Shown: one piece after another, positions 1 to 22,166 of the stretch
How positions within the stretch are numbered: position 1 is the stretch's first letter
How the letters are laid out: every line of letters starts with the position of its first letter
From: a virus
Reading direction: 5' to 3' (one strand)
DNA: 30,324 bases
Virus record (IMG/VR): IMGVR_UViG_3300045988_066580
Coordinates: 1 to 30,324 of that record
Notes under the pieces: model-generated
What the model was told of the DNA's origin: nothing
What the model saw: only the letters and a program-made list of their open reading frames with translations
The model's database searches: none
Program-made: the position numbers and the translations under genes

Positions 1-44
1 GTAGGTACTAGGTACTGTGGGGGTAGGTACTAGGTACTGTGGGG
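1..44. repeat. Two tandem copies of the 22-bp unit GTAGGTACTAGGTACTGTGGGG (contains TAGGTAC twice); same unit as 30248-30324
   Basis: Read directly: 1-22 and 23-44 are identical and are followed by a G-run. Confidence 0.95.
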
Positions 45-47
45 GGG

Positions 48-66
48 GTGGGTACCTAGTACCCAC
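48..66. repeat. Inverted repeat GTGGGTAC-CTA-GTACCCAC (8-bp arms) next to the tandem repeats
   Basis: Arms 48-55 and 59-66 are exact reverse complements. The arm sequence is related to the GGTAC core of the tandem unit. Confidence 0.8.
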
Positions 67-158
67 GAAGTATAACCATATTTCTTTAAGGATAACCATT
101 TAAGAAAAAACATATAAGATAGTTTGCGCTTTGGTTGAGTTTATGTTATTGTCAAAAT

Positions 159-944
159 ATGGCAAAGATTAAAGAACAAGGGTTCGTAGCAGTAAGACAC
201 TGCATCATTCGAGACCGCACCATAGGCGTCTATACGAAACTCGTCTACATCATCATCGCTGACCACAGCGACGAAAACAATCTCAGCTTCCCGAGCGTAA
301 GCACCATAGCCGCCGAAGCCGGATGCACACCAAAGACGGCACTAAAGGCCATAAGGGAACTAATCGCCAAAGGGCTCATAACGCGGGAACATCGAGCACT
401 AGCCAATGGCGGCACCACGTCGTGCCTTTACCATCTTGAGGAGCCACGCAATTTCAAAGCCAATACTGAAAGGGCTAGGCAGTCTGACCCTGATACGCTT
501 GATAAAACGGTTTACCAAGCTCCAGAATCGACTACCACGGTAGAACCCGCACGCGAACCCGCACCGGTAGAACCAGCGCCACATAAGCGCGAGGAATACC
601 CGAACGCATTCGAACAACTATGGGCAATCTATCCGAAGCATGTGGCCAAGATGGCCGCTTACAAGGCGTGGCGTAAAGCAAAAGTAGGAATGAACAGCGC
701 CTTCCTCATGGCCAAGGTGCAAGCATTCGCAGGCCAGTGCGCCAACACGGAAACCCGGTTTATACCCAATTTCGCCACATGGCTCAACGGGGAAAGATGG
801 AATGACGAATACCGTCCAGACCCGCCACAGTCGCGTAAGCCCGCCACGAACGCGGAACGGAATATGCGGAATCTCGCTCAAGCGATGCAGTCGGGAACTG
901 ACCTTTTCGGCTTTCAGATTGAGTCCGGCGTGTCGCGTCCGTAA
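159..944 (+). CDS. Replisome-organizer / DnaD-like winged-helix protein (putative replication initiation)
   Basis: ORF track 135..944. ATG 159 (MAKIKEQGF) is preferred over TTG 135. N-terminal wHTH (SFPSVSTIAAEAGCTPKTALKAIRELIAKGLI). C-terminal FEQLWAIYPKH..KAWRKA..TWLNGERWNDE motif is remembered from phage replication-module proteins. Confidence 0.6.
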   Translation: MAKIKEQGFVAVRHCIIRDRTIGVYTKLVYIIIADHSDENNLSFPSVSTIAAEAGCTPKTALKAIRELIAKGLITREHRALANGGTTSCLYHLEEPRNFKANTERARQSDPDTLDKTVYQAPESTTTVEPAREPAPVEPAPHKREEYPNAFEQLWAIYPKHVAKMAAYKAWRKAKVGMNSAFLMAKVQAFAGQCANTETRFIPNFATWLNGERWNDEYRPDPPQSRKPATNAERNMRNLAQAMQSGTDLFGFQIESGVSRP

Positions 945-955
945 TCATGTATAAT
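926..955 (+). promoter_or_regulatory. Promoter-box variant c0: CGGCGTGTCGC-N13-TATAAT
   Basis: Same CGGCGTGTCGC box as the other six copies. It overlaps the last codons of the 159..944 gene. TATAAT lies at 950-955. Confidence 0.5.
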
Positions 956-1086
956 CGATTAATGCGACATGGAATGATGAATCAACCGCATTGTATGCCA
1001 AGTGGCCGCAAGTTGTGGCGACGCTTGGTGCTGAGGCGTTTCCGCTAGTGCATGTCAAGTTCGCTTATTGATAACGGTTCTCATTT

Positions 1087-1125
1087 ATGCCAGCTGATTT
1101 GTTTCGGCGGGCATTTTCTCTTTTC
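1087..1125 (+). terminator. Candidate intrinsic terminator (imperfect stem ATGCC..GGCAT plus T-rich tail)
   Basis: ATGCCAGC..GCGGGCAT stem followed by TTTCTCTTTTCT, directly upstream of promoter box c1. Confidence 0.35.
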
Positions 1126-1166
1126 TCGGCGTGTCGCACTCAACAATGATGTATTATGTAATTACC
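1126..1166 (+). promoter_or_regulatory. Conserved promoter box c1: TCGGCGTGTCGC-N14-TATTATGTAATTACC
   Basis: Near-identical to 2758, 3916 and 6123. TATTAT lies at 1153-1158 and the ATG follows 31 nt later, after an AGAAAGGA Shine-Dalgarno. Confidence 0.65.
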
Positions 1167-1189
1167 ACCGATAAGAAAGGACAAACAAA

Positions 1190-1450
1190 ATGATTAAACT
1201 CCAACCGTACAATCAAGGCGAATACATCTGCGACGCATACGTCATCATCGACGAAGAAACCGCAACCGCACACGTCCGCAACATTGACCACGGAATCAAC
1301 TTCGACATTGAGAATCTGAACAGTACAGGCGGTATTCTGTTCACCCTCAGAATTGAAATGCTTAAACGAGGATACAAACTCGGCAGATTCAAACCTGACT
1401 ACACCACCGAGGGCGGCTACAATGTGGACGTCTACGAACGCAAAGCCTGA
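1190..1450 (+). CDS. Hypothetical small protein (cassette 1 ORF, 86 aa)
   Basis: ORF track. It has the conserved leader with an AAAGGA RBS and is closed by the conserved hairpin. Confidence 0.7.
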   Translation: MIKLQPYNQGEYICDAYVIIDEETATAHVRNIDHGINFDIENLNSTGGILFTLRIEMLKRGYKLGRFKPDYTTEGGYNVDVYERKA

Positions 1451-1464
1451 AAATACTTATACTA

Positions 1465-1486
1465 GCCCCGCCCGCAAGGGCGGGGC
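1465..1486 (+). promoter_or_regulatory. Conserved hairpin GCCCCGCCC-GCAA-GGGCGGGGC (9-bp GC stem, GNRA loop, no U-tract)
   Basis: Perfect inverted repeat read directly. It is followed by CCTCAATGAAAGGAAAATAAA and ATG 1508. Confidence 0.85.
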
Positions 1487-1507
1487 CCTCAATGAAAGGA
1501 AAATAAA

Positions 1508-1915
1508 ATGCTGACACTATTCAACGATATACCCCCGTATGACATGCATTCCGTCGTTGAGTGCGACAAGACAAAAGACACGGCAATCTTCGAAACCGCA
1601 CTAACCATACAAGACAACCCCAAAATAGCCCGCTACCGCGTATGGCTCTCAGCATGGAAAGGCTTAGAAAACCGGCTGAGAAGCGGAGCACAATATAAAA
1701 CCTACATGATGGACGTCGTAGCCCCATCAGACTGGACGATTGATAAAGTCCACAATACGATACTCGCGTACCTTGCTGGAATCAGTCGGCTGGACTTCTC
1801 AAGCGGCATCCGATGGCGACACGGTGACTACCAGCCACAGCCACACGATTCAATCCAGGAAGACTACATCCTTTACCTTGACGACTTTCTGGACTCAATC
1901 ACACCAAACTTCTGA
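1508..1915 (+). CDS. Hypothetical protein (135 aa)
   Basis: ORF track. GAAAGGA RBS 8 nt upstream. Confidence 0.7.
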   Translation: MLTLFNDIPPYDMHSVVECDKTKDTAIFETALTIQDNPKIARYRVWLSAWKGLENRLRSGAQYKTYMMDVVAPSDWTIDKVHNTILAYLAGISRLDFSSGIRWRHGDYQPQPHDSIQEDYILYLDDFLDSITPNF

Positions 1916-1927
1916 AGGGGAGCAATC

Positions 1928-2341
1928 ATGGGCAATATCAATCATCCAGCACACTACACCGACGATACGAAGCCTTGCGAATGCATTGAAGTCGCGCAAT
2001 ATCACAGTTTTTGCGTAGGCAACGCGATAAAATACGTGTGGCGGCACCGACTTAAGGGGCGCCCCCTCGAAGACTTGCAGAAAGCGGAATGGTATCTGCA
2101 GAGGGCTATCGACAATGGAGAGAAATGCCGTCTGCAAATCGATGGCGAGCCATTGGACGCGCACAATCTCATGCAAGTGGGTAAGTGCTGTCTCTACATG
2201 GACAACCTGTTTGATATTGCTAGGCGCGCTGTGACCTACCGTGAAGGCTTTTTCTGGATATACCTGCGTAAAGGTGATTTGCAAAACATGTTGCGAATCG
2301 TGAAAATGATGCAAGCGGAATGTAAGGATGGATTGAAATGA
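1928..2341 (+). CDS. DUF3310-like phage protein
   Basis: N-terminal INHPAHYT..CIEV..GNAIKYVWRHRLKG..EDLQKAEWYL matches the remembered DUF3310 pattern (NHPxHY..gNaiKY..R...K...DL.KA.). Confidence 0.6.
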   Translation: MGNINHPAHYTDDTKPCECIEVAQYHSFCVGNAIKYVWRHRLKGRPLEDLQKAEWYLQRAIDNGEKCRLQIDGEPLDAHNLMQVGKCCLYMDNLFDIARRAVTYREGFFWIYLRKGDLQNMLRIVKMMQAECKDGLK

Positions 2342-2781
2342 ACAAGTTGCAGGTGCAGGCGCTCCTAACCTATGCCAGCGCTTTTGATAATCGTCTTGTG
2401 ACCGATATCCAGGTGGCCGCATGGATGGAAGCGTTAGCCACTGACATGCGACTTGACGTGGCGAAGGAAGCGATACGCCAATTTTTCGCGAGCCCGGAAT
2501 ATGTGAAGAAGCGTCCGTATCTCATGCCCGCCGACGTTAACAGCTTTTGGCGTAGGTGGAAACGTGACCATACGCCTTCCGAGGCTGACATTACGCGGGA
2601 GATGGCCGCGCTTGGCATTGAGGGTGATGCGAGTTGGGAGTATCGGCGGAATCGGTTGAGTGGGCGTGGTTTGGAAGAGTCCGCGCAATCCGCTAAACGG
2701 TTCCGTGGTCTTGAGAGCGCGCGGGGGTTGAGTCGTTTGGGTGAGATTCTACCGCGTTCGGCGTGTCGCACTCAACAATAA
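2338..2781 (+). CDS. Hypothetical protein (147 aa), ATGA-coupled to the upstream gene
   Basis: ORF track. The last codons are encoded by promoter box c2. Confidence 0.65.
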   Translation: MNKLQVQALLTYASAFDNRLVTDIQVAAWMEALATDMRLDVAKEAIRQFFASPEYVKKRPYLMPADVNSFWRRWKRDHTPSEADITREMAALGIEGDASWEYRRNRLSGRGLEESAQSAKRFRGLESARGLSRLGEILPRSACRTQQ

Positions 2782-2798
2782 TGTATTATGTAATTACC
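2758..2798 (+). promoter_or_regulatory. Conserved promoter box c2
   Basis: TCGGCGTGTCGCACTCAACAATAATGTATTATGTAATTACC. TATTAT lies at 2784-2789 and ATG 2821 follows after 31 nt. Confidence 0.65.
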
Positions 2799-2820
2799 AA
2801 ACAAAGAAAGGACAAAGAAA

Positions 2821-3075
2821 ATGACCAGCATCGAATTCACCAAGACCAGCACCTACGCGGACCTTCTCCACTGCTGGGAGAATGAAGACTACCAGCTTGA
2901 CGGCATGAACTACGAACTCCGCTACTGCGAGCCTATCAGCCGTGACCAAGCTGTTGACGATGAAGGCCACGCCATGCATGACGAATACATCTTTCACAAG
3001 CCGGGCGAAGAGTTCTACAACCCGTCTAGGACGTTCACCGCCGAAGAGGTCGAGCAGTTCGCCCAGACTTGGTGA
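2821..3075 (+). CDS. Small strongly acidic protein (cassette 2 ORF, 84 aa)
   Basis: ORF track. Hand count gives about 19 D/E versus 5 K/R. It has the conserved leader and RBS and is followed by the conserved hairpin. Confidence 0.75.
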   Translation: MTSIEFTKTSTYADLLHCWENEDYQLDGMNYELRYCEPISRDQAVDDEGHAMHDEYIFHKPGEEFYNPSRTFTAEEVEQFAQTW

Positions 3076-3117
3076 CAACCATAGCGGCGGAGGCAACCGC
3101 ACAACCCTCTATCCCAA

Positions 3118-3133
3118 CCGCCCGCAAGGGCGG
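3118..3133 (+). promoter_or_regulatory. Conserved hairpin, left arm truncated (CCGCCC-GCAA-GGGCGG)
   Basis: Same loop, right arm and downstream ACCAATTGAAAGGAACAATA-ATG as the other copies. Confidence 0.7.
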
Positions 3134-3156
3134 GGCACCAATTGAAAGGAACAATA

Positions 3157-3750
3157 ATGACACTCAATGAAAAATATATGGCAGTACTCAACGAAGTCCC
3201 CAACTTCGTCACCGACCTCACCGCCAACGCAGGGCAACGCACCTACAAGTACCTCAACCTATCCACCATCCTCAAGACCATCAAACCTATTTTTGCGAAG
3301 CATGATTTAGCCTTCCGACAGGTGGTGCGCATGGGCGCGGTAGGCGAAAAAGTGAGCTACGGCACGGTCGAAACAATCATTTTCGACGCTGAAGAGACCT
3401 TGAACGTCGGTTATTACCCCTTCATTATTGTCCCCGACCCTCAGGCAATCGGCTCCGCAGTAACCTACGCGCGCCGCTACTCCCTCTACGCTGTCCTTGG
3501 TATCTTCCCCGACAAGGACGACGACGGAGCCGCCATGCGCGACTATTCCACCCCACAGCATCCACGCAAGGCCACGGCACAGGAAGTCAACGACCTTAAC
3601 GACATGGCCCAGGCCGCTGGAACAAATCTTGGGTTTTATGTCAATGCTTTGGCATCGCAGTTCGGCCATGAGGTGCGTAAGCCTCAGGACTTGACCGAAC
3701 ATGACGTCATGCTTCTCCGTCAGGCCATCAGTAAGAGCGGCAATAAGTGA
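3157..3750 (+). CDS. erf: ERF-family single-strand annealing protein
   Basis: Central GSAVTYARRYSLYAVLGIFPDKDDDG is the classic ERF motif. ATG 3157 is preferred over TTG 3142, which lies inside the conserved leader. Confidence 0.8.
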   Translation: MTLNEKYMAVLNEVPNFVTDLTANAGQRTYKYLNLSTILKTIKPIFAKHDLAFRQVVRMGAVGEKVSYGTVETIIFDAEETLNVGYYPFIIVPDPQAIGSAVTYARRYSLYAVLGIFPDKDDDGAAMRDYSTPQHPRKATAQEVNDLNDMAQAAGTNLGFYVNALASQFGHEVRKPQDLTEHDVMLLRQAISKSGNK

Positions 3751-3914
3751 AAAAGGTTGCTATATTCTGCGGTTTCTTGGCGCTTACGATTGTGTCCGCT
3801 GTTGCTTTGGGAGTGGCATTTCAATGCGATGATAGGCTCATGATTCTTCTCGCATTGGTTACTATCCTTATTGGTTTGGCTGGTATGGGTTTCGTTGTCA
3901 TGGATTATCTCTAG
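3747..3914 (+). CDS. Small 2-TM membrane protein (55 aa), GTGA-coupled to erf
   Basis: My translation: VKKVAIFCGFLALTIVSAVALGVAFQCDDRLMILLALVTILIGLAGMGFVVMDYL. It is below the 60-aa cutoff of the ORF track. Confidence 0.5.
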   Translation: MKKVAIFCGFLALTIVSAVALGVAFQCDDRLMILLALVTILIGLAGMGFVVMDYL

Positions 3915-3915
3915 T

Positions 3916-3956
3916 TCGGCGTGTCGTAACCCAAACTGTTGTATTATGTAATTACC
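3916..3956 (+). promoter_or_regulatory. Conserved promoter box c3
   Basis: TCGGCGTGTCGTAACCCAAACTGTTGTATTATGTAATTACC. TATTAT lies at 3942-3947 and ATG 3979 follows after 31 nt. Confidence 0.65.
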
Positions 3957-3978
3957 AAACAAAGAAAGGACAAACAAA

Positions 3979-4173
3979 ATGAACATCAACCTCAGCACAG
4001 CAGAAGACTACATCATCAGCTACCTTGAAAACAGCGGACAGGATGACGGCAACTGGGACACCTACGAAGCCGCGAAAGACCTCCGCAACATCTGCATCCT
4101 GAACGGGTACACCGATTATGAACAGGTAGACCCCGACGAGTTCACCGAACTGCTCAAGGAACACGCACTCTAA
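3979..4173 (+). CDS. Small strongly acidic protein (cassette 3 ORF, 64 aa)
   Basis: ORF track. Hand count gives about 15 D/E versus 3 K/R. It has the conserved leader and is closed by the hairpin. Confidence 0.75.
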   Translation: MNINLSTAEDYIISYLENSGQDDGNWDTYEAAKDLRNICILNGYTDYEQVDPDEFTELLKEHAL

Positions 4174-4184
4174 ACCAAACCACA

Positions 4185-4206
4185 GCCCCGCCCGCAAGGG
4201 CGGGGC
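4185..4206 (+). promoter_or_regulatory. Conserved hairpin GCCCCGCCC-GCAA-GGGCGGGGC
   Basis: Perfect copy, followed by ACCATCTAATGAAAGGAACAATA-ATG 4230. Confidence 0.85.
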
Positions 4207-4229
4207 ACCATCTAATGAAAGGAACAATA

Positions 4230-4502
4230 ATGAAAGATACAATAACCCTTGCCCAATACGTCAGATTCCTCAAAGAGACACTAACACAGCTCGAAGAAGT
4301 GGCTGAAGACTCACCAGACATTGAACTAAAAGACTACACGCCGCAAATCGCAATCTACCCCAATTCCAGAGAGGACGCCCTCGACTTGATATACCTGGCT
4401 GGAATCGAACCAGCGATTTACAAAAACATCGTAAGAGGACAATTCAACACCGTCAACGGAATCGCCTACGTCCACTACGACGAAGAGAAAGAGGATAAAT
4501 GA
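4230..4502 (+). CDS. Hypothetical acidic protein (90 aa)
   Basis: ORF track 4215..4502. ATG 4230 is preferred because the upstream MKGTI codons are the conserved leader. Confidence 0.7.
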   Translation: MKDTITLAQYVRFLKETLTQLEEVAEDSPDIELKDYTPQIAIYPNSREDALDLIYLAGIEPAIYKNIVRGQFNTVNGIAYVHYDEEKEDK

Positions 4503-4909
4503 GACTCACACTATGGCCGGGAGCCATGCCAATCACATTCAAAACCGTCGCCGGAGAGCGAGAATACAAAGTCATGAAGGGTGTTTACGGATACCTCATT
4601 CAATCCAAAAACGGCAATTTGTTCACACTGGACAATGGAAACAACTTGCGCGTAGTTGACCCTAGCAACGTCCAATATCTTAACTCACTGACAGAGGGGG
4701 AACGTCTAAAATTCCTCCGCAACACGTTCGGCATCAGCCAACGAGAACTGGCCAGAATGTACGGCGTCCGGCAAGCAATGGTAGCTCACTGGGAAACAGA
4801 CTACAGGCATATCGCCCCGAAACGCGTCGAACAAATTGAAGCCACACTATTCAACGCTTACATTCGCACAGCATCTAGAGCCGGGCTTCCGGTAGGAAAG
4901 GAAAACTAA
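4499..4909 (+). CDS. XRE-family helix-turn-helix protein
   Basis: C-terminal LKFLRNTFGISQRELARMYGVRQAMVAHWETDYRHIAPKRVEQIE is an HTH_3-type motif. ATGA-coupled to 4230..4502. Confidence 0.7.
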   Translation: MRLTLWPGAMPITFKTVAGEREYKVMKGVYGYLIQSKNGNLFTLDNGNNLRVVDPSNVQYLNSLTEGERLKFLRNTFGISQRELARMYGVRQAMVAHWETDYRHIAPKRVEQIEATLFNAYIRTASRAGLPVGKEN

Positions 4910-4910
4910 A

Positions 4911-5798
4911 ATGAGAATTCTGAACGTCTCTCAAGCACAGGACACGCAAGCATGGTTGGACGCCAGAATAGGCAAAATCACTGGCACCAAAGCCGGAACG
5001 CTCGCGCTCGAACATTACGCCCAGAAGGACGTAGCCAAGCTCGAAGCCATGGCAGACAAGGCAAAGACCGAAGAAAAGGCCGAAGAATACAGAGAGAAAG
5101 CCGAACAAGCCAAACGAGATAACGCACGGTTGAAAGTCAACCTCGACTTCTGGCAGTTTCTTGCTGACATGATTGCGGAACAGCCGGACGGAGAACCGCC
5201 AATGGAACGCGGACACCGTTTGGAAAACACTAACATCATGATGGCGTGCAAGAAACTTGACATTTCTCCCGACATTGTGGAATTCGATACTGGAATGTGG
5301 GTAAGTGACGTGGATGACCGTATTGCGGTCAGCCCGGACGCCCACGAAAAACCGCAAATCGATATTAGCGGGCTGAAATATAATCCCACGTTCGCGTTCG
5401 AAGCGAAAAGCCTGGGCACGAAATACCATTTGCAGACGGTTGTCCCGTTCCGCGCATTCCAGATGCTCAACGATCCTGAAACTCCGAATAGTCAACGTGA
5501 TGAATTGCGGTCGTTGGCGCTCAAACTGTTCCCGGAGATTTTGGAATCGCGTAGGGAGTTCGACTTCATCCCTGAACAGTATCAGGCTCAAGTGCTCCAG
5601 TATTTTGTCGTTAACCCTGACTTGCAGACAGTGTATTTCACCATGTACGACGATAGGGTATATAGTAGTCTGCGACATGAGGTGTTCGCGGTTGACCGGC
5701 TGAGTGTCGCAAGTGAAATCGAAGCACAGGAGACAAAGGAATTGCAGACATTGGCACTTATTGACGAACTGCAAAAACTGGGGGGTGTGGACTGGTGA
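4911..5798 (+). CDS. YqaJ-like (lambda Exo-type, PD-(D/E)xK) recombination exonuclease
   Basis: N-terminal QAQDTQAWLDARIGKITGTKAGTL matches the YqaJ pattern (Q.s.eWl..R.G.iTaS). The gene is in the same arm as erf. Confidence 0.65.
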   Translation: MRILNVSQAQDTQAWLDARIGKITGTKAGTLALEHYAQKDVAKLEAMADKAKTEEKAEEYREKAEQAKRDNARLKVNLDFWQFLADMIAEQPDGEPPMERGHRLENTNIMMACKKLDISPDIVEFDTGMWVSDVDDRIAVSPDAHEKPQIDISGLKYNPTFAFEAKSLGTKYHLQTVVPFRAFQMLNDPETPNSQRDELRSLALKLFPEILESRREFDFIPEQYQAQVLQYFVVNPDLQTVYFTMYDDRVYSSLRHEVFAVDRLSVASEIEAQETKELQTLALIDELQKLGGVDW

Positions 5799-6073
5799 GC
5801 ATTTCACGACGTGTCATTTACGCGGTGTTCGATGATTGCGCGGGATGCAGACACCGTGAGTTGATTGACGAACTCCGAAAAATGGTGTTGCGCGTCAAGA
5901 AGAAAACGGGCGTTATGATTGCGCTCATGGTTGTTCAGCCGGGGAATAGTCGTTACTGGACTTTGCGCAAGTGTCACAAGTATTCTAATGCGCCGTTCTT
6001 CGTGTTCGATGGGGTGTGTTATCGCCATGTGGATGCGCTTGAGGTGCAGTGCTTGGCGTATTGCAGTCGTTGA
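5795..6073 (+). CDS. Hypothetical protein with CxxC motif (possible thioredoxin-fold)
   Basis: ORF track. GTGA-coupled start. VFDDCAGCRH is present near the N-terminus. The fold assignment is weak. Confidence 0.45.
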   Translation: MSISRRVIYAVFDDCAGCRHRELIDELRKMVLRVKKKTGVMIALMVVQPGNSRYWTLRKCHKYSNAPFFVFDGVCYRHVDALEVQCLAYCSR

Positions 6074-6080
6074 AATTCAG

Positions 6081-6118
6081 GGGAACCTACGAAGGAATTT
6101 CGTGGGTTCCCTTTTTTT
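6081..6118 (+). terminator. Strong intrinsic terminator (13-bp stem, GGAAT loop, T7 tract)
   Basis: GGGAACCTACGAA-GGAAT-TTCGTGGGTTCCC followed by TTTTTTT, immediately before promoter box c4. Confidence 0.85.
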
Positions 6119-6122
6119 ATTT

Positions 6123-6163
6123 TCGGCGTGTCGTGTCCGCAAGTAGTGTATTATGTAATTACC
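6123..6163 (+). promoter_or_regulatory. Conserved promoter box c4
   Basis: TCGGCGTGTCGTGTCCGCAAGTAGTGTATTATGTAATTACC. TATTAT lies at 6149-6154 and ATG 6186 follows after 31 nt. Confidence 0.7.
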
Positions 6164-6185
6164 AAACAAAGAAAGGACAAACAAA

Positions 6186-6389
6186 ATGAACACCGAAACC
6201 AACTGCTTCAAGGGATACCACATCAAGGCCACCACCAACGAGGACGGCACGGTAGACGTCGAAGCATGGTGGAACCAGAACGCAACAGGCGAATACTGCG
6301 AGACACCACACGCGTACGGCAAATTCGCCACCAGAAAAGAATACCTCAAGTGGCTCACCGGCAAGTTCGCTGAAATCGTCGGAGAATAA
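6186..6389 (+). CDS. Hypothetical small protein (cassette 4 ORF, 67 aa)
   Basis: ORF track. It has the conserved leader and is closed by the hairpin. Confidence 0.7.
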   Translation: MNTETNCFKGYHIKATTNEDGTVDVEAWWNQNATGEYCETPHAYGKFATRKEYLKWLTGKFAEIVGE

Positions 6390-6397
6390 CCCACCCC

Positions 6398-6419
6398 GCC
6401 CCGCCCGCAAGGGCGGGGC
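6398..6419 (+). promoter_or_regulatory. Conserved hairpin GCCCCGCCC-GCAA-GGGCGGGGC
   Basis: Perfect copy, followed by ACCAATTGAAAGGAACCAGCA-ATG 6441. Confidence 0.85.
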
Positions 6420-6440
6420 ACCAATTGAAAGGAACCAGCA

Positions 6441-6587
6441 ATGAGCAAAAACGACGGATTCGTGGCAATGCTCTTTATTTTCGGATTCGTATTATCCGCG
6501 AACGAAGACATGAACTTCATCAATATTATCGGTGTCGCGTGCGTGTTTTCGGCACTCTACATCTACCGCAAAGGAGCGAAGAAATGA
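6441..6587 (+). CDS. Small 2-TM membrane protein (48 aa)
   Basis: My translation: MSKNDGFVAMLFIFGFVLSANEDMNFINIIGVACVFSALYIYRKGAKK. The ATG sits at the canonical distance from the hairpin and RBS. ATGA-coupled to the next gene. Confidence 0.5.
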   Translation: MSKNDGFVAMLFIFGFVLSANEDMNFINIIGVACVFSALYIYRKGAKK

Positions 6588-6946
6588 ACAAAGCAGTACA
6601 GGCCGGACTAGTCGCCGGATACCTCAACACTTGCGTCCAGCTCACGGACGGGTACGGAATGAAATTAAGAATCATGCGTGAAAGCTGGAAAATGGCGTGC
6701 GACAAAGTAGCCGACCATTACGAACAACTCACGCAATCCACGGACGATAACCGCAAACAATGTGTGGCGGTAGGGAAAAAGACACAGGCGCAAAGCTTGA
6801 AGAATCTTGCCGTGTGCGGTTGGTGTCTCGCTCCCTTCATCACTTTCCCCGTATGGCTCCTCATGGCGAGGAAGACGGGTTTACGTGGCTATCTGACGGC
6901 AGTGAGCGTATGCGCGTTCACCCGGCATATCGCGGAAATGTATTAA
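6584..6946 (+). CDS. Hypothetical protein with C-terminal hydrophobic segment (120 aa)
   Basis: In-frame part of track ORF 6425..6946, starting at MNKAVQAG. Its ATG overlaps the stop of 6441..6587. Confidence 0.55.
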   Translation: MNKAVQAGLVAGYLNTCVQLTDGYGMKLRIMRESWKMACDKVADHYEQLTQSTDDNRKQCVAVGKKTQAQSLKNLAVCGWCLAPFITFPVWLLMARKTGLRGYLTAVSVCAFTRHIAEMY

Positions 6947-6956
6947 GGGGGATGCA

Positions 6957-7235
6957 GTGGAATATAAGAACGTTGACGCCTACGATTATAAGGTGATGGC
7001 ACACTACTCCGCAAGCGGGGTCGTCTGGGAGGTGTACGAGCGTACCGCAGACGGTTGGGAGAAACGCAAACGCGGATACGACAAGCGGGTCGCCAAAGCA
7101 AGGGAGAGAGCGCACGCGGTTATCGTTCGGCTTGCCGAAGTGCGTTATGGCGCTGATTATCGCGTGTCCAGGTTGGTGCCATTGAAGTATCCGATGTGTT
7201 GGGGTGTGTTTGTCGAACGTCGGCGTGTCGCATAA
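6957..7235 (+). CDS. Hypothetical protein (92 aa), GTG start
   Basis: ORF track. AAGGGGG lies 5 nt upstream of the GTG. The last codons (ERRRVA) are encoded by promoter-box copy c5. Confidence 0.6.
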   Translation: MEYKNVDAYDYKVMAHYSASGVVWEVYERTADGWEKRKRGYDKRVAKARERAHAVIVRLAEVRYGADYRVSRLVPLKYPMCWGVFVERRRVA

Positions 7236-7255
7236 CCAAGTATTGCATGAAGAAC
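7220..7255 (+). promoter_or_regulatory. Degenerate promoter box c5 (TCGGCGTGTCGC-N9-TATTGC)
   Basis: The box is intact, but the spacer is shorter and the -10 and leader are degenerate. No cassette ORF follows. Confidence 0.4.
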
Positions 7256-7273
7256 TCTGCGACTGACACCACA

Positions 7274-7295
7274 GCCCCGCCCGCAAGGGCTGGGC
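7274..7295 (+). promoter_or_regulatory. Conserved hairpin, one mismatch (GCCCCGCCC-GCAA-GGGCTGGGC)
   Basis: Same flanks (CACAGCCCC..) as the copy at 4185. Followed by ACACTTAATGGAAGGAATAAAAC-ATG 7319. Confidence 0.75.
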
Positions 7296-7318
7296 ACACT
7301 TAATGGAAGGAATAAAAC

Positions 7319-7474
7319 ATGTATACGGTCCGTTTTAACGACCTCGAATACGTATGTGACACATTCAGACAAGCCGTAGCCATGGCAAGAAAAACAGTGG
7401 AACACGGAGACGTCGCAACCATTCTTGATGATGAAGGCGAAGAAGTCGCATCATTTCACCCAATGGAGGAATAA
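7319..7474 (+). CDS. Hypothetical small acidic protein (51 aa)
   Basis: My translation: MYTVRFNDLEYVCDTFRQAVAMARKTVEHGDVATILDDEGEEVASFHPMEE. Canonical distance from hairpin and RBS. Its stop overlaps the HNH start (TAATG). Confidence 0.5.
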   Translation: MYTVRFNDLEYVCDTFRQAVAMARKTVEHGDVATILDDEGEEVASFHPMEE

Positions 7475-7815
7475 TGCTAGCGAAAGAAGGCAAACCAAAA
7501 GAGAAGAATCCAACCGAAGAAACCCGCCAACTCGTGTTGGAACGTGACCACTACCGTTGCGTGAGGTGCGGACGTGACATAAGATACACGCCCTTCGGCT
7601 ACTCCATCCACCACCGGCGCTTACGCTCGCACCCCTATGCTGAAATGCATTCCAGCTCGAACCTCATAACCCTCTGCGGTTCAGGCACCACCGGTTGCCA
7701 CGGTTGGGTGCATGAAAACGTGAAAGAAGCCGAACGACTGGGATTAATCGTTTCAGGCTTCGCACGACCCGAAAGCATTCCAGTGCAAACGTGGGACGGG
7801 TTGAAAGACATTTAA
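7474..7815 (+). CDS. HNH endonuclease
   Basis: RCVRCGR..YSIHHRRLRS..SNLITLCGSGTTGCHGWVHEN carries the H-N-H and zinc-binding Cys pattern. Confidence 0.8.
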   Translation: MLAKEGKPKEKNPTEETRQLVLERDHYRCVRCGRDIRYTPFGYSIHHRRLRSHPYAEMHSSSNLITLCGSGTTGCHGWVHENVKEAERLGLIVSGFARPESIPVQTWDGLKDI

Positions 7816-7825
7816 AAAAGAAGAA

Positions 7826-7853
7826 GCCGCACGGTTTTCTTTCACCGTGCGGC
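7826..7853. terminator. Bidirectional terminator between the convergent arms
   Basis: GCCGCACGGT-TTTCTTTC-ACCGTGCGGC. On the - strand it is followed by TTCTTCTTTTTT; on the + strand it is preceded by A6 and lacks a good U-tract. Confidence 0.85.
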
Positions 7854-7903
7854 CTATCAATGACAACACTAAAAGTCAATCGCTAAAACTTTCAGCACCT
7901 CAC

Positions 7904-7932
7904 ATTATACTAGGCCAACGTATTTTCGTCAA
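7904..7932 (-). promoter_or_regulatory. Consensus-like sigma70 promoter TTGACG-17-TATAAT on the - strand
   Basis: TTGACG lies at 7932..7927, a 17-nt spacer follows, and TATAAT lies at 7909..7904. It spans the holin stop codon and points at the terminator. Confidence 0.45.
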
Positions 7933-8209
7933 CAAACGTTTTACCAAGTTTGCCGCCCATCACCTGATTGACAACAGTGTAAACCGTCTGTGAAACACCA
8001 ATCACAGCAACAAGCAGTACACCCCACGTATAACCGTGGTTGAACCCGCCCACAGCCGCGATAGCCAACATACCCAACACGACACTGACCGCGAGACTAA
8101 ACAAGGCGGTCATGTTATCCGGCAGAACAGGTTTAACAACCTGCACGAACACGGGAGCAACCAAACCTACAATCGCCACCGCGATAGTCTCAGCCTGAGT
8201 AATATCCAT
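7910..8209 (-). CDS. Holin (about 3 TM segments)
   Basis: 99 aa with three hydrophobic stretches and a charged C-terminus. It is the last gene of the late operon, next to the endolysin. Confidence 0.65.
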   Translation of the reverse strand: MDITQAETIAVAIVGLVAPVFVQVVKPVLPDNMTALFSLAVSVVLGMLAIAAVGGFNHGYTWGVLLVAVIGVSQTVYTVVNQVMGGKLGKTFVDENTLA

Positions 8210-17208: not shown

Positions 17209-17254
17209 ATTGTGTTACTCCTTATTGAGAATGATTATCGTTTTTCCTTGGTTC

Positions 17255-21126: not shown

Positions 21127-21192
21127 TCGTGTTTCCCTTACGTTTGGAGCGTCCTTACGGGGCTTTATTGCTCTATACTGATTCTAACACTA

Positions 21193-22029
21193 TTAATGAG
21201 AATGATTCTCATTAATTATTGGGCTGAGATTGCCGATTATTTGTTTCTCCCAGTCACTGAGCGGCCATACGGTCACATCCTCCGCGGCCTTCAGTTCCGC
21301 GGCCTTCAGTTCCGCGGCCTTCAGTTCCGCGGCCTTCAGTTCCGCGGCCTTGGCCTCGCTCATCAGATAGCCGCCGCCGTAGATGGCCTTCCTCACCGCC
21401 CTCTGCGAGTCAAGCGCCCGAATGAACGCCACATCCGAAGCCTTGACGCGGAACTCGACCTGCTTGCCAATCTTCCCGAGCCTGCTCACGGTAAGCAGTT
21501 CACGCGGATACGCGTATTTCGGCGGATGCCTGCGTTGCTCTTTCCTGACGCGCTTCACGGTCTCGTCGATCGCGTTGGCCAAGTCCGGCGCGGTGCGGAT
21601 CAGGTCATCACCGAAACTCGTCACGAACGACGTGTTGACCTGCGCGCCGTTCGCGTATTCGATGGTCGAATTCGTGACGATCATGTGCGCCCCATTGCAC
21701 GACGTGCTGGAGAAGATCGTGAGATACGGCGCGAACAGGAAGAACGGAATTTGCTCCGTCCGATAGAACGTGCAGATCTTCGCCAGGATGCTGAACGGCG
21801 GATTATCCACAACCACCGCACCGCCCGAATAGTCGAACCGCTCGTAGTCCCCGCCCGGATAGAACGGGCGCACCACCTTGCTGGGGTCGATACCATATTC
21901 ACTGCATGCCCAGTCCTTTATCGTCTCATACACTTCGGGTGGAGTATAGCAGTCATCCGTGGTCTTCTTCGGCTTGAATTTTTCCACGAATCCGTCATAA
22001 TCGTTAAACGTTGCTTGTCTTGCTTTCAT
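21193..22029 (-). CDS. DNA methyltransferase (DNPPF motif IV; probably N6-adenine) with C-terminal (AAELK)n repeat
   Basis: KKTTDDCYTPPEVY..RPFYPGGDYE..VVVDNPPFS is present. Start ATG 22029 overlaps (ATGA) the stop of the Com-like ORF, so the track extension to 22095 was rejected. Confidence 0.7.
   Translation of the reverse strand: MKARQATFNDYDGFVEKFKPKKTTDDCYTPPEVYETIKDWACSEYGIDPSKVVRPFYPGGDYERFDYSGGAVVVDNPPFSILAKICTFYRTEQIPFFLFAPYLTIFSSTSCNGAHMIVTNSTIEYANGAQVNTSFVTSFGDDLIRTAPDLANAIDETVKRVRKEQRRHPPKYAYPRELLTVSRLGKIGKQVEFRVKASDVAFIRALDSQRAVRKAIYGGGYLMSEAKAAELKAAELKAAELKAAELKAAEDVTVWPLSDWEKQIIGNLSPIINENHSH
21281..21353. repeat. 15-bp in-frame tandem repeat TCCGCGGCCTTCAGT x4 plus a partial fifth copy
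   Basis: Perfect copies at 21281, 21296, 21311 and 21326, with a partial copy at 21341-21353. Encodes KAAEL repeats in the methyltransferase. Confidence 0.95.
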
Positions 22030-22166
22030 TCGTGTACTCTTGTCTGACTCAATAAAACAATATGGTAGAGCATATACGCGCGGCAGTTGGGGCACTTGAG
22101 CATGAGGCGAACACTATGTTCAGTCTCGCCTAGGAAACGTCCGCACTTCTTGCACTTGATTTCCAT
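22026..22166 (-). CDS. Com-like zinc-ribbon protein (46 aa)
   Basis: My translation: MEIKCKKCGRFLGETEHSVRLMLKCPNCRAYMLYHIVLLSQTRVHE. The CxxC-N16-CxxC spacing and context resemble Mu Com. Its ATG directly follows the portal stop, and its stop overlaps the methyltransferase ATG. Confidence 0.6.
   Translation of the reverse strand: MEIKCKKCGRFLGETEHSVRLMLKCPNCRAYMLYHIVLLSQTRVHE

Follow-up and report, generated by a model that had tools for sequence, protein, structure and literature searches.

Repeated U-less hairpins in the early arm of a probable Bifidobacterium phage as the apparent right-hand ends of swappable cassettes

Five copies of one hairpin stand directly before genes of the early arm in a viral record of 30,324 nt (IMG/VR IMGVR_UViG_3300045988_066580; this entire stretch is the window below), and the locus raises the question of what a strong stem-loop is doing ahead of genes that have to be transcribed. 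Three copies match GCCCCGCCC-GCAA-GGGCGGGGC exactly, one carries a single stem mismatch and one has a truncated left arm (Table 1), just as an earlier note on this DNA had described; these five matches compare with 0.00 expected from 100 shuffles. The stem is 9 bp long and all G/C, and the perfect hairpin is a 22-nt palindrome. Its predicted fold reaches about -24 to -25 kcal/mol in the three perfect copies (-24.5 in copy A), -14.4 kcal/mol in the short-armed copy B and -17.7 kcal/mol in the mismatched copy E. The stem follows the preceding stop codon by 8-20 nt, and the ATG of the next gene lies 20-23 nt 3' of it, a spacing that the window sequence bears out. The 3' tails of the five copies read CCTCAATGAAAGG, ACCAATTGAAAGG, ACCATCTAATGAAAGG, ACCAATTGAAAGG and ACACTTAATGGAAGG, with a T-run in 0/5. 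No Rfam covariance model matched the hairpin, the search of the window returning only two tRNAs and one chance match (E = 0.4).

Four of the window hairpins close a cassette. From 5' to 3', each cassette consists of a CGGCGTGTCG box, about 15 nt of spacer, TATTAT, a 35-nt UTR with a GAAAGGA ribosome site, a small ORFan, the hairpin and a second ribosome site, and it separates a predicted resident early promoter from the core gene that comes first in an early operon. The exact box occurs seven times in the window against 0.14 expected. Together with TATTAT it precedes four ORFans here and is present in all relatives, and we infer that this module is a promoter. P0, a member of the same promoter-like family, stands in the window without a cassette; in two relatives (L060 and L065) the equivalent site, a putative promoter, directly heads the core gene of slot A, one of the five cassette positions described below. 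The next promoter-like module lies 1.1-2.2 kb from each hairpin, beyond the core genes. The small ORFs of the four cassettes are mutually unrelated, and none of the ten cargo ORFan families has a Pfam or PHROG match. The cassette 3 family, F4, comprises 92 homologue clusters, and the long contigs that carry it measure about 30 kb; its predicted structure is a confident three-helix bundle (pLDDT 93) for which the PDB offered no structural match. The genome family probably represents ~30-kb phages of gut Bifidobacterium.

Table 1. Cassette modules, cargo ORFs, hairpins and terminator-like elements of the window
Feature	Position	Strand	Description
Terminator-like hairpin with T-tract	1087-1126	+	ATGCCAGCTG...CGGCGGGCAT then TTTCTCTTTTCT; just 5' of cassette 1 box
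P0	926-953	+	CGGCGTGTCG box and TGTATAAT; same promoter-like family, without cassette
Cassette 1 promoter-like module and 5' UTR	1125-1189	+	Box 1127-1136, TATTAT 1152-1157, GAAAGGA; direct-repeat families D1, D7, D9
Cassette 1 cargo	1190-1450	+	ORFan family F1, 86 aa; slot A in most relatives
Hairpin copy A	1465-1507	+	1465-1486 perfect 9-bp stem, GCAA loop; with linker and ribosome site of gene starting 1508
Cassette 2 promoter-like module	2757-2820	+	Box 2759-2768, TATTAT 2784-2789; overlaps 3' end of 147-aa gene
Cassette 2 cargo	2821-3117	+	ORFan family F3, 84 aa (2821-3075), and its own 3' UTR (3076-3117)
Hairpin copy B	3118-3156	+	3115/3118-3136, left arm truncated, 6-bp stem left, GCAA loop; with ribosome site of erf (3157-3750)
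Cassette 3 promoter-like module	3915-3978	+	Box 3917-3926, TATTAT 3942-3947
Cassette 3 cargo	3979-4173	+	ORFan family F4, 64 aa, pI about 4
Hairpin copy C	4185-4229	+	4185-4206 perfect; with ribosome site of gene starting 4230
Canonical intrinsic terminator	6079-6120	+	15-16-bp stem then TTTTTTTATTTT; directly before cassette 4 box; -24.6 kcal/mol, z = -5.4
Cassette 4 promoter-like module	6122-6185	+	Box 6124-6133, TATTAT 6149-6154
Cassette 4 cargo	6186-6389	+	ORFan family F5, 67 aa; from the ORF list
Hairpin copy D	6398-6440	+	6398-6419 perfect; with ribosome site of gene starting 6441
Cassette 5 remnant	7219-7266	+	Box 7221-7230, truncated -10 region, junction near 7245-7248, last 19 nt of F9-type ORF (7248-7266)
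Hairpin copy E	7274-7318	+	7274-7295, one stem mismatch; with ribosome site of gene starting 7319
Terminator-like hairpin	7824-7855	.	Convergent junction at the early arm's end; T-run on minus strand only

A slot map of 29 related ~30-kb genomes places the ten ORFan families in five fixed slots. Five families change slot between genomes, independent assemblies included: F2 occupies slots A and B, F3 and F6 each occupy A, B and D, F7 is found at B and E, and F8 at B, D and E; F4 sits at slot C wherever that slot was mapped. Two of these placements recur in independent assemblies: F3 at slot A in two Logan runs, and F3 at slot B in one ENA and one Logan assembly. At its three slots the F6 cassette retains 94-97% identity from box to hairpin (297 nt) against only 24-46% in the flanks, and in comparisons between slots the box and the hairpin mark the limits of similarity. 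In empty slots, such as slot D of L066 with its cassette-4-type module, the promoter module is fused directly to the core gene, with no ORF and no hairpin. As judged from these comparisons, the hairpins are the right-hand ends of swappable cassettes that stand before early genes at five fixed places, and their copies would be identical because the whole cassette moves between slots. The earlier note mentions neither the promoter-like module that precedes each small ORF nor the slot-to-slot movement of the entire unit.

The two imperfect copies differ in origin. The left arm of copy B is short because the F3 UTR of the window is joined to the hairpin at CCAACCG/CCC. In L032, L005 and L093 this UTR runs on into ...CCAACCGG or a ribosome site; F3 thus travels without the canonical hairpin, which is therefore not obligatory. 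For copy E, the expectation that every hairpin lies between a small ORF and the next ribosome site held only in part: all five copies exist, but a cassette ORF precedes only four. The fifth stands behind the scar of a 258-nt deletion, recognised by aligning the remnant with L007 and L022, where the slot-E cassette is intact. Lost in this event were the -10 region, the UTR and nearly the whole of an ORF of 78 aa that relatives keep; the deletion is flanked by ATTG repeats and is common to the window and L032 (same contig as L041), and L042 likewise lacks the slot-E ORF. On this alignment the fifth hairpin copy is the leftover of that deletion.

The hairpins do not look like terminators. Across the 29 genomes, the 9 nt after the stem contain 0-3 T in 120/120 copies, so the missing U-tract that had been noted for the window holds throughout. 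Canonical hairpins with U-tracts occur in the same genomes where no gene needs read-through (1087-1126, 6079-6120 and 7824-7855 in the window); the T-rich tract before the slot-A box is kept in relatives, and the terminator before slot D is conserved in them. Compared with an intrinsic terminator, the element has the G+C-rich hairpin, lacks the 7-9 nt U-tract and does not mark the end of a transcription unit. A scan of the window found no CGGCGTGTCG box between the hairpins and the core genes behind them, in agreement with the earlier statement that these genes have no promoter of their own. This context, a gene start close downstream and no promoter, argues against termination at the window hairpins. 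The view that they are not simple full terminators is thus upheld by the absent U-tracts, by the U-tract terminators used elsewhere and by core genes without their own box.

A leaky, factor-assisted terminator or attenuator is a different matter, possible though doubtful: part of the polymerases from a strong cassette promoter (predicted) would be stopped or paused, leaving the ORFan in excess as an immediate-early product and the core genes lower or later as delayed-early ones. Such a brake would fit a strong G+C-rich stem so soon after a stop codon, and third-position C falls a little on passing each hairpin: it is 0.52-0.58 in the ORFs of the cassettes and 0.40-0.47 in the first gene after the stem. 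Stem mismatches in all deletion-bearing slot-E copies (window, L041 and L042), where the cassette promoter and ORF have been deleted, fit a brake that is no longer needed. Some real termination at the hairpins is conceivable too, since the stem-loops of PeSL (promoter-early stem-loop) cassettes, of a similar G/C-tract type, cut lacZ expression in E. coli as strongly as rrnB T1 (PMC2839356). Yet all 120 copies lack a U-tract although the same genomes use U-tract terminators elsewhere, and U-less hairpins brought about no termination by purified mycobacterial RNA polymerase, which is not that of Bifidobacterium, even when NusA and NusG were present (PMC3993855). Moreover, all core early genes would depend on passing the hairpins, because no other box promoter exists. 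An RNase III processing site was also considered and rejected, since it needs about 20 bp or more of double-stranded RNA and the stem has 9 bp. The hairpin may act as an attenuator or as a 3' stabiliser, and among these RNA-level roles the stabiliser is preferred.

Variation within the hairpin bears on whether the structure matters as RNA, as DNA or as a protein-binding site. Three stem pairs show double compensatory changes, a result matched by 4/500 shuffles, and G.U intermediates are present among the variants. In the wobble comparison for a sense-strand RNA, C.A mismatches and U.G pairs occur at similar frequencies, and the hairpin may form as single-stranded DNA. An action at the DNA level only, with the palindrome promoting recombination or template switching or marking where a mobile element ends, and with no function in the transcript, nevertheless appears unlikely. 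It would explain why crossovers map to the hairpin, as those of PeSLs map within the loop (PMC2839356), why loops are inverted (GCAA to TTGC, present in two assemblies independent of each other, and ACGC to GCGT), as is characteristic of intrastrand events in palindromic DNA, and why hairpin variants have become alike at different slots within a genome (for example slots B and C of L056). It does not account for the maintained compensatory pairs, and homology alone has no need of a palindrome; a family search of 20 window proteins turned up neither a transposase nor an integrase. A more distant relative keeps an unrelated U-less hairpin (GGGCACC-CACCAA-GGTGCCC) at the same position in the transcript, and this cannot be shared homology because its copies differ between slots.

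The loop is equally informative about the earlier suggestion of a boxB-like GNRA loop read by a protein, which found no support. Binding by a phage protein, whether to a boxB/nut-like site for antitermination or to the operator of a translational regulator, would suit the identical window copies, the GNRA-type GCAA loop and the basic uncharacterised small proteins encoded in the arm (for example 6957-7235, containing EKRKRGYDKRVAKARERAH). At orthologous sites, however, the loop may be GCAA, ACGC, ACAC, ACAA, CCAA, GTAA, GCGT or TTGC, and before erf (slot B) it is ACGC in 18/27 copies; the stem changes in compensated pairs instead of keeping fixed bases, and the distant relative has its unrelated hairpin. 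Downstream of the stem the copies share only the ribosome-site consensus, there is no conserved boxA-like partner, and the stop-to-stem spacer travels with the ORF and differs between families. Empty slots carry the same core genes, presumably expressed, without the hairpin. The hairpin also has no Rfam match, and recognition by a protein is highly improbable. Among the proteins, no family match points to an arginine-rich antiterminator. The element at 26197-26225, previously taken for a degenerate relic of the hairpin, is not a decayed copy: it has a separate conserved stem, CCCGYCTAG/CTAGACGGG, with a variable loop in 18 relatives, and abuts a tRNA-Ser on the minus strand.

The explanation that we moderately favour is that the hairpin forms the 3' boundary of a self-contained, exchangeable expression cassette, is read through, and serves both as an RNA 3' stabiliser or insulator and as a DNA crossover point. 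As for the DNA, cassettes would be exchanged through the short homologies that the common promoter and hairpin/ribosome-site modules offer, and the exchange could rely on the Erf and YqaJ-type exonuclease that the phage encodes or on template switching at the palindrome; the same arm encodes erf (3157-3750, an ERF family match) and a YqaJ-like gene (4911-5798). Counting against this explanation, the right-hand crossover homology is short, about 25-45 nt, and F3 moves without the canonical hairpin. At the RNA level, the sense transcript would fold a stem of about -24 kcal/mol that, because it lacks a U-tract, should not release RNA polymerase, and transcription would continue into the core genes. 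Third-position C is in keeping with such read-through, at 0.40-0.47 in the first gene after each hairpin and only 0.20-0.29 in the operon-distal genes, and the stem mismatches of the deletion-bearing slot-E copies fit this explanation too. Cleavage of the A/U-rich linker would then leave the stem to block 3' exonucleases, the outcome being a stable, abundant, short ORFan mRNA insulated from the downstream message. Overall, the observation made in the earlier note is partly confirmed and its interpretation partly supported.

Several known systems share elements of this arrangement. Intercistronic mRNA-stabiliser hairpins, such as REP in E. coli malEFG, those of the Rhodobacter puf operon and the RNase III-processed hairpins of the T7 early region, likewise use a stable U-less stem-loop to set the promoter-proximal cistron apart from the remainder of an operon, and a high ratio of upstream to downstream product is likewise proposed. 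Unlike them, the present element has a stem of 9 bp, less than a classical RNase III site requires, and is repeated within a mobile cassette. The morons of lambdoid phages, reportedly described by Juhala et al. in 2000 and also discussed in PMC2839356, are likewise insertions into an otherwise conserved genome, in which a single accessory gene with its promoter and a hairpin has come to lie between two neighbouring genes. Morons have unrelated flanks, true terminators and expression independent of their neighbours, whereas the cassettes have flanks from a conserved repeated family, a hairpin without a U-tract and downstream genes predicted to depend on the cassette promoter. The lambda nut/boxB site acting with N is also a small early-transcript hairpin before genes needing read-through, and most copies here share its GNRA-type loop; it differs in its 5-bp stem, conserved pentaloop and boxA partner, against a 9-bp stem, a variable tetraloop, no conserved partner motif and absence from empty slots. 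An integron cassette was rejected on the absence of an integrase family among the 20 window proteins and on the perfect 22-nt palindrome, where an attC site would have R/L boxes and extrahelical bases.

Among elements of Actinobacteria, the U-less 'I-shaped' putative terminators are also G+C-rich hairpins after a stop codon; put forward as terminators, they did not bring about termination in vitro (PMC3993855). The SAS/ESAS elements of Cluster K mycobacteriophages similarly combine an early-region inverted repeat with a conserved motif directly 3' of it, which in some genes extends over the ribosome site and start codon (PMC3203893). In these phages the inverted repeat of ESAS is imperfect and 17 bp long, its spacer measures 4-13 bp, and SAS is GGGATAGGAGCCC; the repeats stay with particular gene families, and no promoter module or ORF shuffling is described (PMC3203893). 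The PeSL cassettes of T4-type myoviruses (Arbiol et al. 2010, PMC2839356; Comeau et al. 2014, PMC4122927) likewise have repeated early-promoter (here predicted) and G/C-tract stem-loop motifs that flank ORFans, a Shine-Dalgarno sequence and start codon at the 3' edge, and motifs that act as linkers for modular shuffling with crossovers in or beside the stem-loop. The PeSL promoter and stem-loop form a single intergenic motif of roughly 100 bp, the stem-loop usually lying inside the promoter, and the ORFans are arranged in tandem in hyperplastic regions of 170-250-kb genomes with Gram-negative hosts. The cassettes described here share the repeated promoter-like consensus, the G/C stem-loop in the motif and the exchange of ORFans; their promoter and stem-loop are not contiguous, the two halves being split around the ORF, with the promoter-like module 5' and the stem-loop 3'. 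They have no sequence relationship to PeSLs, belong to a 30-kb genome of a probable Bifidobacterium phage, and each heads a core-gene operon that must be read through. By its sequence organisation, the locus is thus a PeSL-like or moron-like system.

Hairpins 1 to 4 each close, on the 3' side, a larger unit that recurs in the window and has four parts, a cassette made up of a promoter-like module, a small ORFan, the hairpin and a second ribosome site that leads into a core gene. The hairpin itself is a 22-nt palindrome, GCCCCGCCC-GCAA-GGGCGGGGC, present in exact and variant copies in the window (table) and found zero times in every shuffle of it. It starts 8-41 nt past the cargo stop codon, carries no T-run 3' of the stem in any window copy, and is followed by an ATG 20-23 nt past the stem. 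The earlier note had described the copies, the missing T-run and the distance to the start codon correctly, and the hairpins it singled out are real and non-random; what it missed is the mobile promoter-ORFan-hairpin cassette system to which they belong.

Coordinates of the cassettes and of other features in the window
Feature	Position (nt)	Strand	Description
Early arm	135-7815	+	HTH_36/DnaD-like initiator, DUF3310, ERF, HTH protein, YqaJ-like exonuclease, HNH protein
Minus-strand arm		-	Lysis and structural genes, including terminase and GH25-CW_7-LysM endolysin
Promoter-like modules	1125, 2757, 3915, 6122		TTCGGCGTGTCG-N15-TATTATGTAATTACCAAACAAAGAAAGGACAAACAAAATG, ~65 nt
Cassette small ORFs			64-86 aa, all four mutually unrelated
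Hairpin, exact	1465, 4185, 6398
Hairpin, left arm shortened	3115/3118
Hairpin, one mismatch	7274
Core genes after second ribosome site			135-aa gene, erf, 90-aa gene, 48-aa gene
Extra box, P0	926-953	+	CGGCGTGTCG at 926, then TGTATAAT
Extra box	7221		CGGCGTGTCG
Extra box	26310-26319	-	CGGCGTGTCG, upstream of tRNA genes
Boxes overlapping upstream genes	2757-2781, 920-944, 7219-7235		C-termini SACRTQQ, SGVSRP and RRRVA before the stop
Canonical hairpin + T-tract	1087-1126		Before slot-A box
Canonical hairpin + T-tract	6079-6120		Before slot-D box
Terminator-like hairpin	7824-7855		Closes early arm; T-run on minus strand
F4 ORF	3979-4173	+
Candidate early non-coding RNA	958-1137	+
GCTTATTGATAACGGTTCTCATT motif	1063-1085
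GCTTATTGATAACGGTTCTCATT motif, 22/23	24322-24344	
Related AT-rich palindromes	17220-17242, 21191-21216
Terminal tandem repeats	1-67, 30226-30314		22-nt units (GTAGGTACTAGGTACTGTGGGG)
Palindrome adjoining the repeats	48-66
Stem at tRNA-Ser(GCT)	26197-26240		CCCGYCTAG/CTAGACGGG, variable loop 12-20 nt
Second tRNA-like gene	25898-25972	-	Rfam tRNA, 39 bits; ARAGORN 'tRNA-???', abnormal two-base anticodon
Tandem 15-nt units	21281-21355	-	Five units (TCCGCGGCCTTCAGT) within structural-region ORF 21193-22095; would encode a pentapeptide repeat

Exact copies of the 10-nt box CGGCGTGTCG number seven in the window, against 0.14 expected. Position, conservation and a -10-like hexamer suggest that the module is an early promoter and 5' UTR of the phage, with a -35 region that is not sigma-70-like. 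At three sites the box overlaps the last codons of the upstream gene, so the left edge of the cassette helps to set the C-terminal residues of core proteins.

A search of IMG/VR with the exact hairpin returned 34 stretches, nearly all from ~30-kb contigs, and an exonuclease search returned 28 relatives at 87-96% amino acid identity. These relatives and the window together hold 120 hairpin copies in five slots (A-E), each defined by the core gene downstream. Ten cargo families (F1-F10), without a match for any of them in Pfam or PHROGs, fill the slots: F1, F2, F6, F10 or the pair F3+F1 at slot A; F2, F3, F6, F7 or F8 at slot B; F4 only at slot C; F5, F6, F8 or F3+F2 at slot D; and F7, F8, F9 or a deletion at slot E. 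Comparison of these arrangements shows the cassette architecture, its exchange among slots and breakpoints at the box and the hairpin. From box to hairpin, a length of 297 nt, the F6 cassettes of slots A, B and D share 94-97% identity, and the sequence outside is unrelated (24-46%). Spacer variants 3' of the stem track the slot and the spacer 5' of the stem tracks the ORF, which places the right-hand crossover in or at the hairpin. Assembly chimerism or misassembly at repeats was rejected as the cause of the slot changes, because the arrangements recur in independent ENA and Logan assemblies and any one family occurs at most once per mapped genome. Two Logan runs independently place F3 at slot A; at slot B it appears in an ENA assembly and in a Logan assembly that agree even in their TTGC-loop hairpin.

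Among the cargo, F4 alone is confined to a single slot; the protein is acidic (pI about 4), ranges from 69% to 94% identity over 92 clusters, and is predicted with confidence to form a three-helix bundle (pLDDT 93), a model for which Foldseek returned nothing from the PDB below E = 0.5. A 65%-identical homologue of F3 (gene 4001-4255 in L087-L089, which are Bifidobacterium pseudocatenulatum and metagenome contigs) lies in an integrase-flanked element of Bifidobacterium genomes. Near it in L087, beside an HTH gene, is a 59-aa gene with a Pfam match to the anti-CRISPR AcrIC5, a neighbor that hints that cargo ORFans may belong to anti-defence neighborhoods.

Empty slots reveal how hairpin and cargo are coupled. 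In two relatives (L066 at slot D, L041 at slot B) the promoter module and ribosome site are fused straight to the core gene, with neither ORF nor hairpin; the core genes therefore do not need the hairpin, and the comparison shows that it arrives with the inserted ORF. In L060 and L065 the slot-A gene lies directly behind the box site P0, a putative promoter read as driving it; the entire 958-1507 block is missing from both. The fifth hairpin of the window is the remainder of a 258-nt deletion between two ATTG repeats, which took the -10 region, the UTR and almost the entire F9 ORF. Deletion-bearing stems are mismatched (GGGCTGGGC in the window, GTGCGGGGC in L041, two mismatches in L042), a weak hint of relaxed selection; this decay covers only 2-3 lineages, with a mis-scored Fisher p = 0.17. 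F3 has a 3' UTR of its own; the window shows this UTR fused to the resident hairpin between CCAACCG and CCC, which accounts for the left arm being short at 3118. F3 cassettes at slot A lack a canonical hairpin altogether.

Predicted RNA folds are strongest for the perfect copies, at -24 to -25 kcal/mol, against -17.7 for the copy with a mismatch and -14.4 for the one with a short arm; the GAAAGGA ribosome site stays unpaired. Covariation shows the stem to be under selection: double compensatory changes occur at three stem pairs (pair 4, C-G to A-U; pair 6, G-C to A-U; pair 8, C-G to U-A), a level attained by only 4 of 500 shuffles, and G.U intermediates are found. Wobble asymmetry on the sense strand, compared in order to tell RNA from DNA pairing, showed U.G and C.A variants in about equal numbers, so that the selected fold may be RNA or single-stranded DNA. 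The loop varies freely: it is ACGC at slot B in 18 of 27 genomes, and the forms ACAC, ACAA, CCAA, GTAA, GCGT and TTGC are also found. A more distant relative of ~28.4 kb retains the box promoter and the layout with different hairpins, likewise without a U-tract (for example GGGCACC-CACCAA-GGTGCCC, between a 96-aa ORF and the exonuclease gene). Loop variation and these different hairpins speak for a generic stable stem and against a GNRA loop recognized in the manner of lambda boxB, an analogy that is not supported. Rfam, at a permissive threshold, returned nothing at the hairpins.

Two of the loops are exact inversions, TTGC of GCAA and GCGT of ACGC. They occur with unchanged arms in L045 (slot E, 8139), L064 (slot B, 5199), L095 (7955) and L096 (3569), and the TTGC form is present in two independent assemblies. 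Such loop inversion bears the mark of intrastrand switching, or of a cruciform processed at the palindrome, and shows that template-switch-type events take place there at the DNA level.

None of the 120 copies is followed by a U-tract, and the core early genes all lie behind a hairpin without a further box promoter, which bears out the earlier note's view that these are not simple full terminators; a stabilizer or an attenuator, both among its options, may be right too. Relatives conserve the T-rich tracts that precede the slot-A and slot-D boxes. Third-position C is 0.52-0.58 in cargo ORFs, 0.40-0.47 in the first gene past each hairpin and 0.20-0.29 in operon-distal genes; a composition gradient thus continues across the hairpins and begins anew at every promoter module. 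Over 1190-7815 (+), promoter-near genes are C-rich and G-poor, and distal genes G/T-rich (G3 or T3 up to 0.39-0.43). A serious rival reading makes the hairpin a partial brake on transcription, as the G/C-tract stem-loops of PeSL (promoter-early stem-loop) cassettes strongly lowered expression in E. coli (PMC2839356); U-less hairpins, however, did not terminate purified mycobacterial RNA polymerase, even with NusA and NusG (PMC3993855). A terminator role on the antisense strand was rejected, the T-rich tail on the minus strand being found in one copy only. The cassette hairpin falls short of the defining features of an intrinsic terminator, of a nut site, of an attC site and of an RNase III site.

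In the mechanism proposed here, the module would act as an early promoter and polymerase would read through the hairpin; cleavage in the A/U-rich linker would follow, after which the stem would shield the ORFan mRNA from 3' exonucleases and insulate it from the downstream message. Exchange would use the shared modules as substrates (~65 nt left, ~25-45 nt right), plausibly through the Erf/YqaJ-type recombination pair of the same arm, or through template switching at the palindrome. A bolder claim, which we put forward tentatively and consider rather doubtful, is that gut Bifidobacterium phages have, in the stretch from box to hairpin, a platform dedicated to gene exchange. Its five docking slots would each supply a promoter and ribosome site; ORFan cassettes, possibly anti-defence, would be moved when phage Erf and exonuclease anneal single strands on linkers of 25-65 nt, or when template switching is stalled by the hairpin; and the U-less hairpin would have been selected as both DNA crossover site and non-terminating RNA 3' cap. 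Such a platform would amount to a 'recombineering landing pad' made by nature, and would carry PeSL-type evolution beyond giant myoviruses, down to minimal genomes of siphovirus size.

The window resembles a complete phage genome, and the same 22-nt tandem repeats at both ends imply that it is complete and either circularly permuted or terminally redundant. The repeats adjoin a palindrome and the initiator gene, and look like origin iterons. Megablast of positions 1-8000 against GenBank phages gave no match. By terminase and endolysin, BlindBasel1 and BlindUri1, two phages of Bifidobacterium asteroides, come closest among isolates (33-53% amino acid identity; terminase 53%), and BlindBasel1 is without a repeated promoter or hairpin family. 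The closest endolysins in genomes are from Bifidobacterium (48-58%), B. pseudocatenulatum has an annotated homologue of cargo F3, and the related contigs come from gut metagenomes; these matches make a gut Bifidobacterium the very probable host. Among 185,579 species genomes none contains the cassette promoter pattern, and hence no prophage copy was found.

Behind the P0 box promoter, ~170 nt without an ORF end in their own hairpin and T-tract, making this stretch a candidate early non-coding RNA. The GCTTATTGATAACGGTTCTCATT motif within it recurs at a second site, in the gap that separates the terminase gene from a 711-aa ORF whose counterpart in L093 has a Phage_portal Pfam match; read on the minus strand, this second site closely follows a TATAAT. 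The motif could be an antisense pairing site, a shared operator or a late-promoter element. The supposed degenerate hairpin relic at 26197-26225 is rejected as a copy, being part of a separate conserved stem directly 5' of tRNA-Ser(GCT) and downstream of the minus-strand box. In the minus-strand tRNA transcript that stem may serve as a leader or as a processing structure.

The setting is an abundant, uncultured ~30-kb phage family, probably of human-gut Bifidobacterium, in which the effect of a strong U-less hairpin on an actinobacterial transcript is put to a natural test: full, empty and deleted slot states and canonical terminators are available for comparison, all in the same genomes. The ten fast-evolving, promoter-proximal ORFan families are candidates for host-takeover or anti-defence functions, and the modules could be portable expression parts for Bifidobacterium. 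If correct, the cassette reading would describe a general phage route for trading small accessory genes with core operons undisturbed.

Among known elements, the cassette hairpin resembles the intercistronic stabilizer hairpins. The cassettes are similar overall to morons, which differ in having unrelated flanks and true terminators, and in layout they recall the Cluster K mycobacteriophage repeats ESAS/SAS (PMC3203893). Closest of all known systems is PeSL, from T4-type phages (PMC2839356, PMC4122927), which also has the repeated early promoter, the G/C stem-loop with a Shine-Dalgarno at its 3' edge, ORFans as cargo, and shuffling in which crossovers fall at the stem-loop. Unlike in PeSL, the promoter and stem-loop halves lie here on either side of the ORF, polymerase has to pass the hairpin, and the cassettes head core operons, whereas PeSL ORFans stand in tandem in hyperplastic regions. 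The carrier, too, is different, a 30-kb phage of an actinobacterium; if the reading is correct, PeSL-type shuffling of regulatory cassettes is not confined to T4-like giants.
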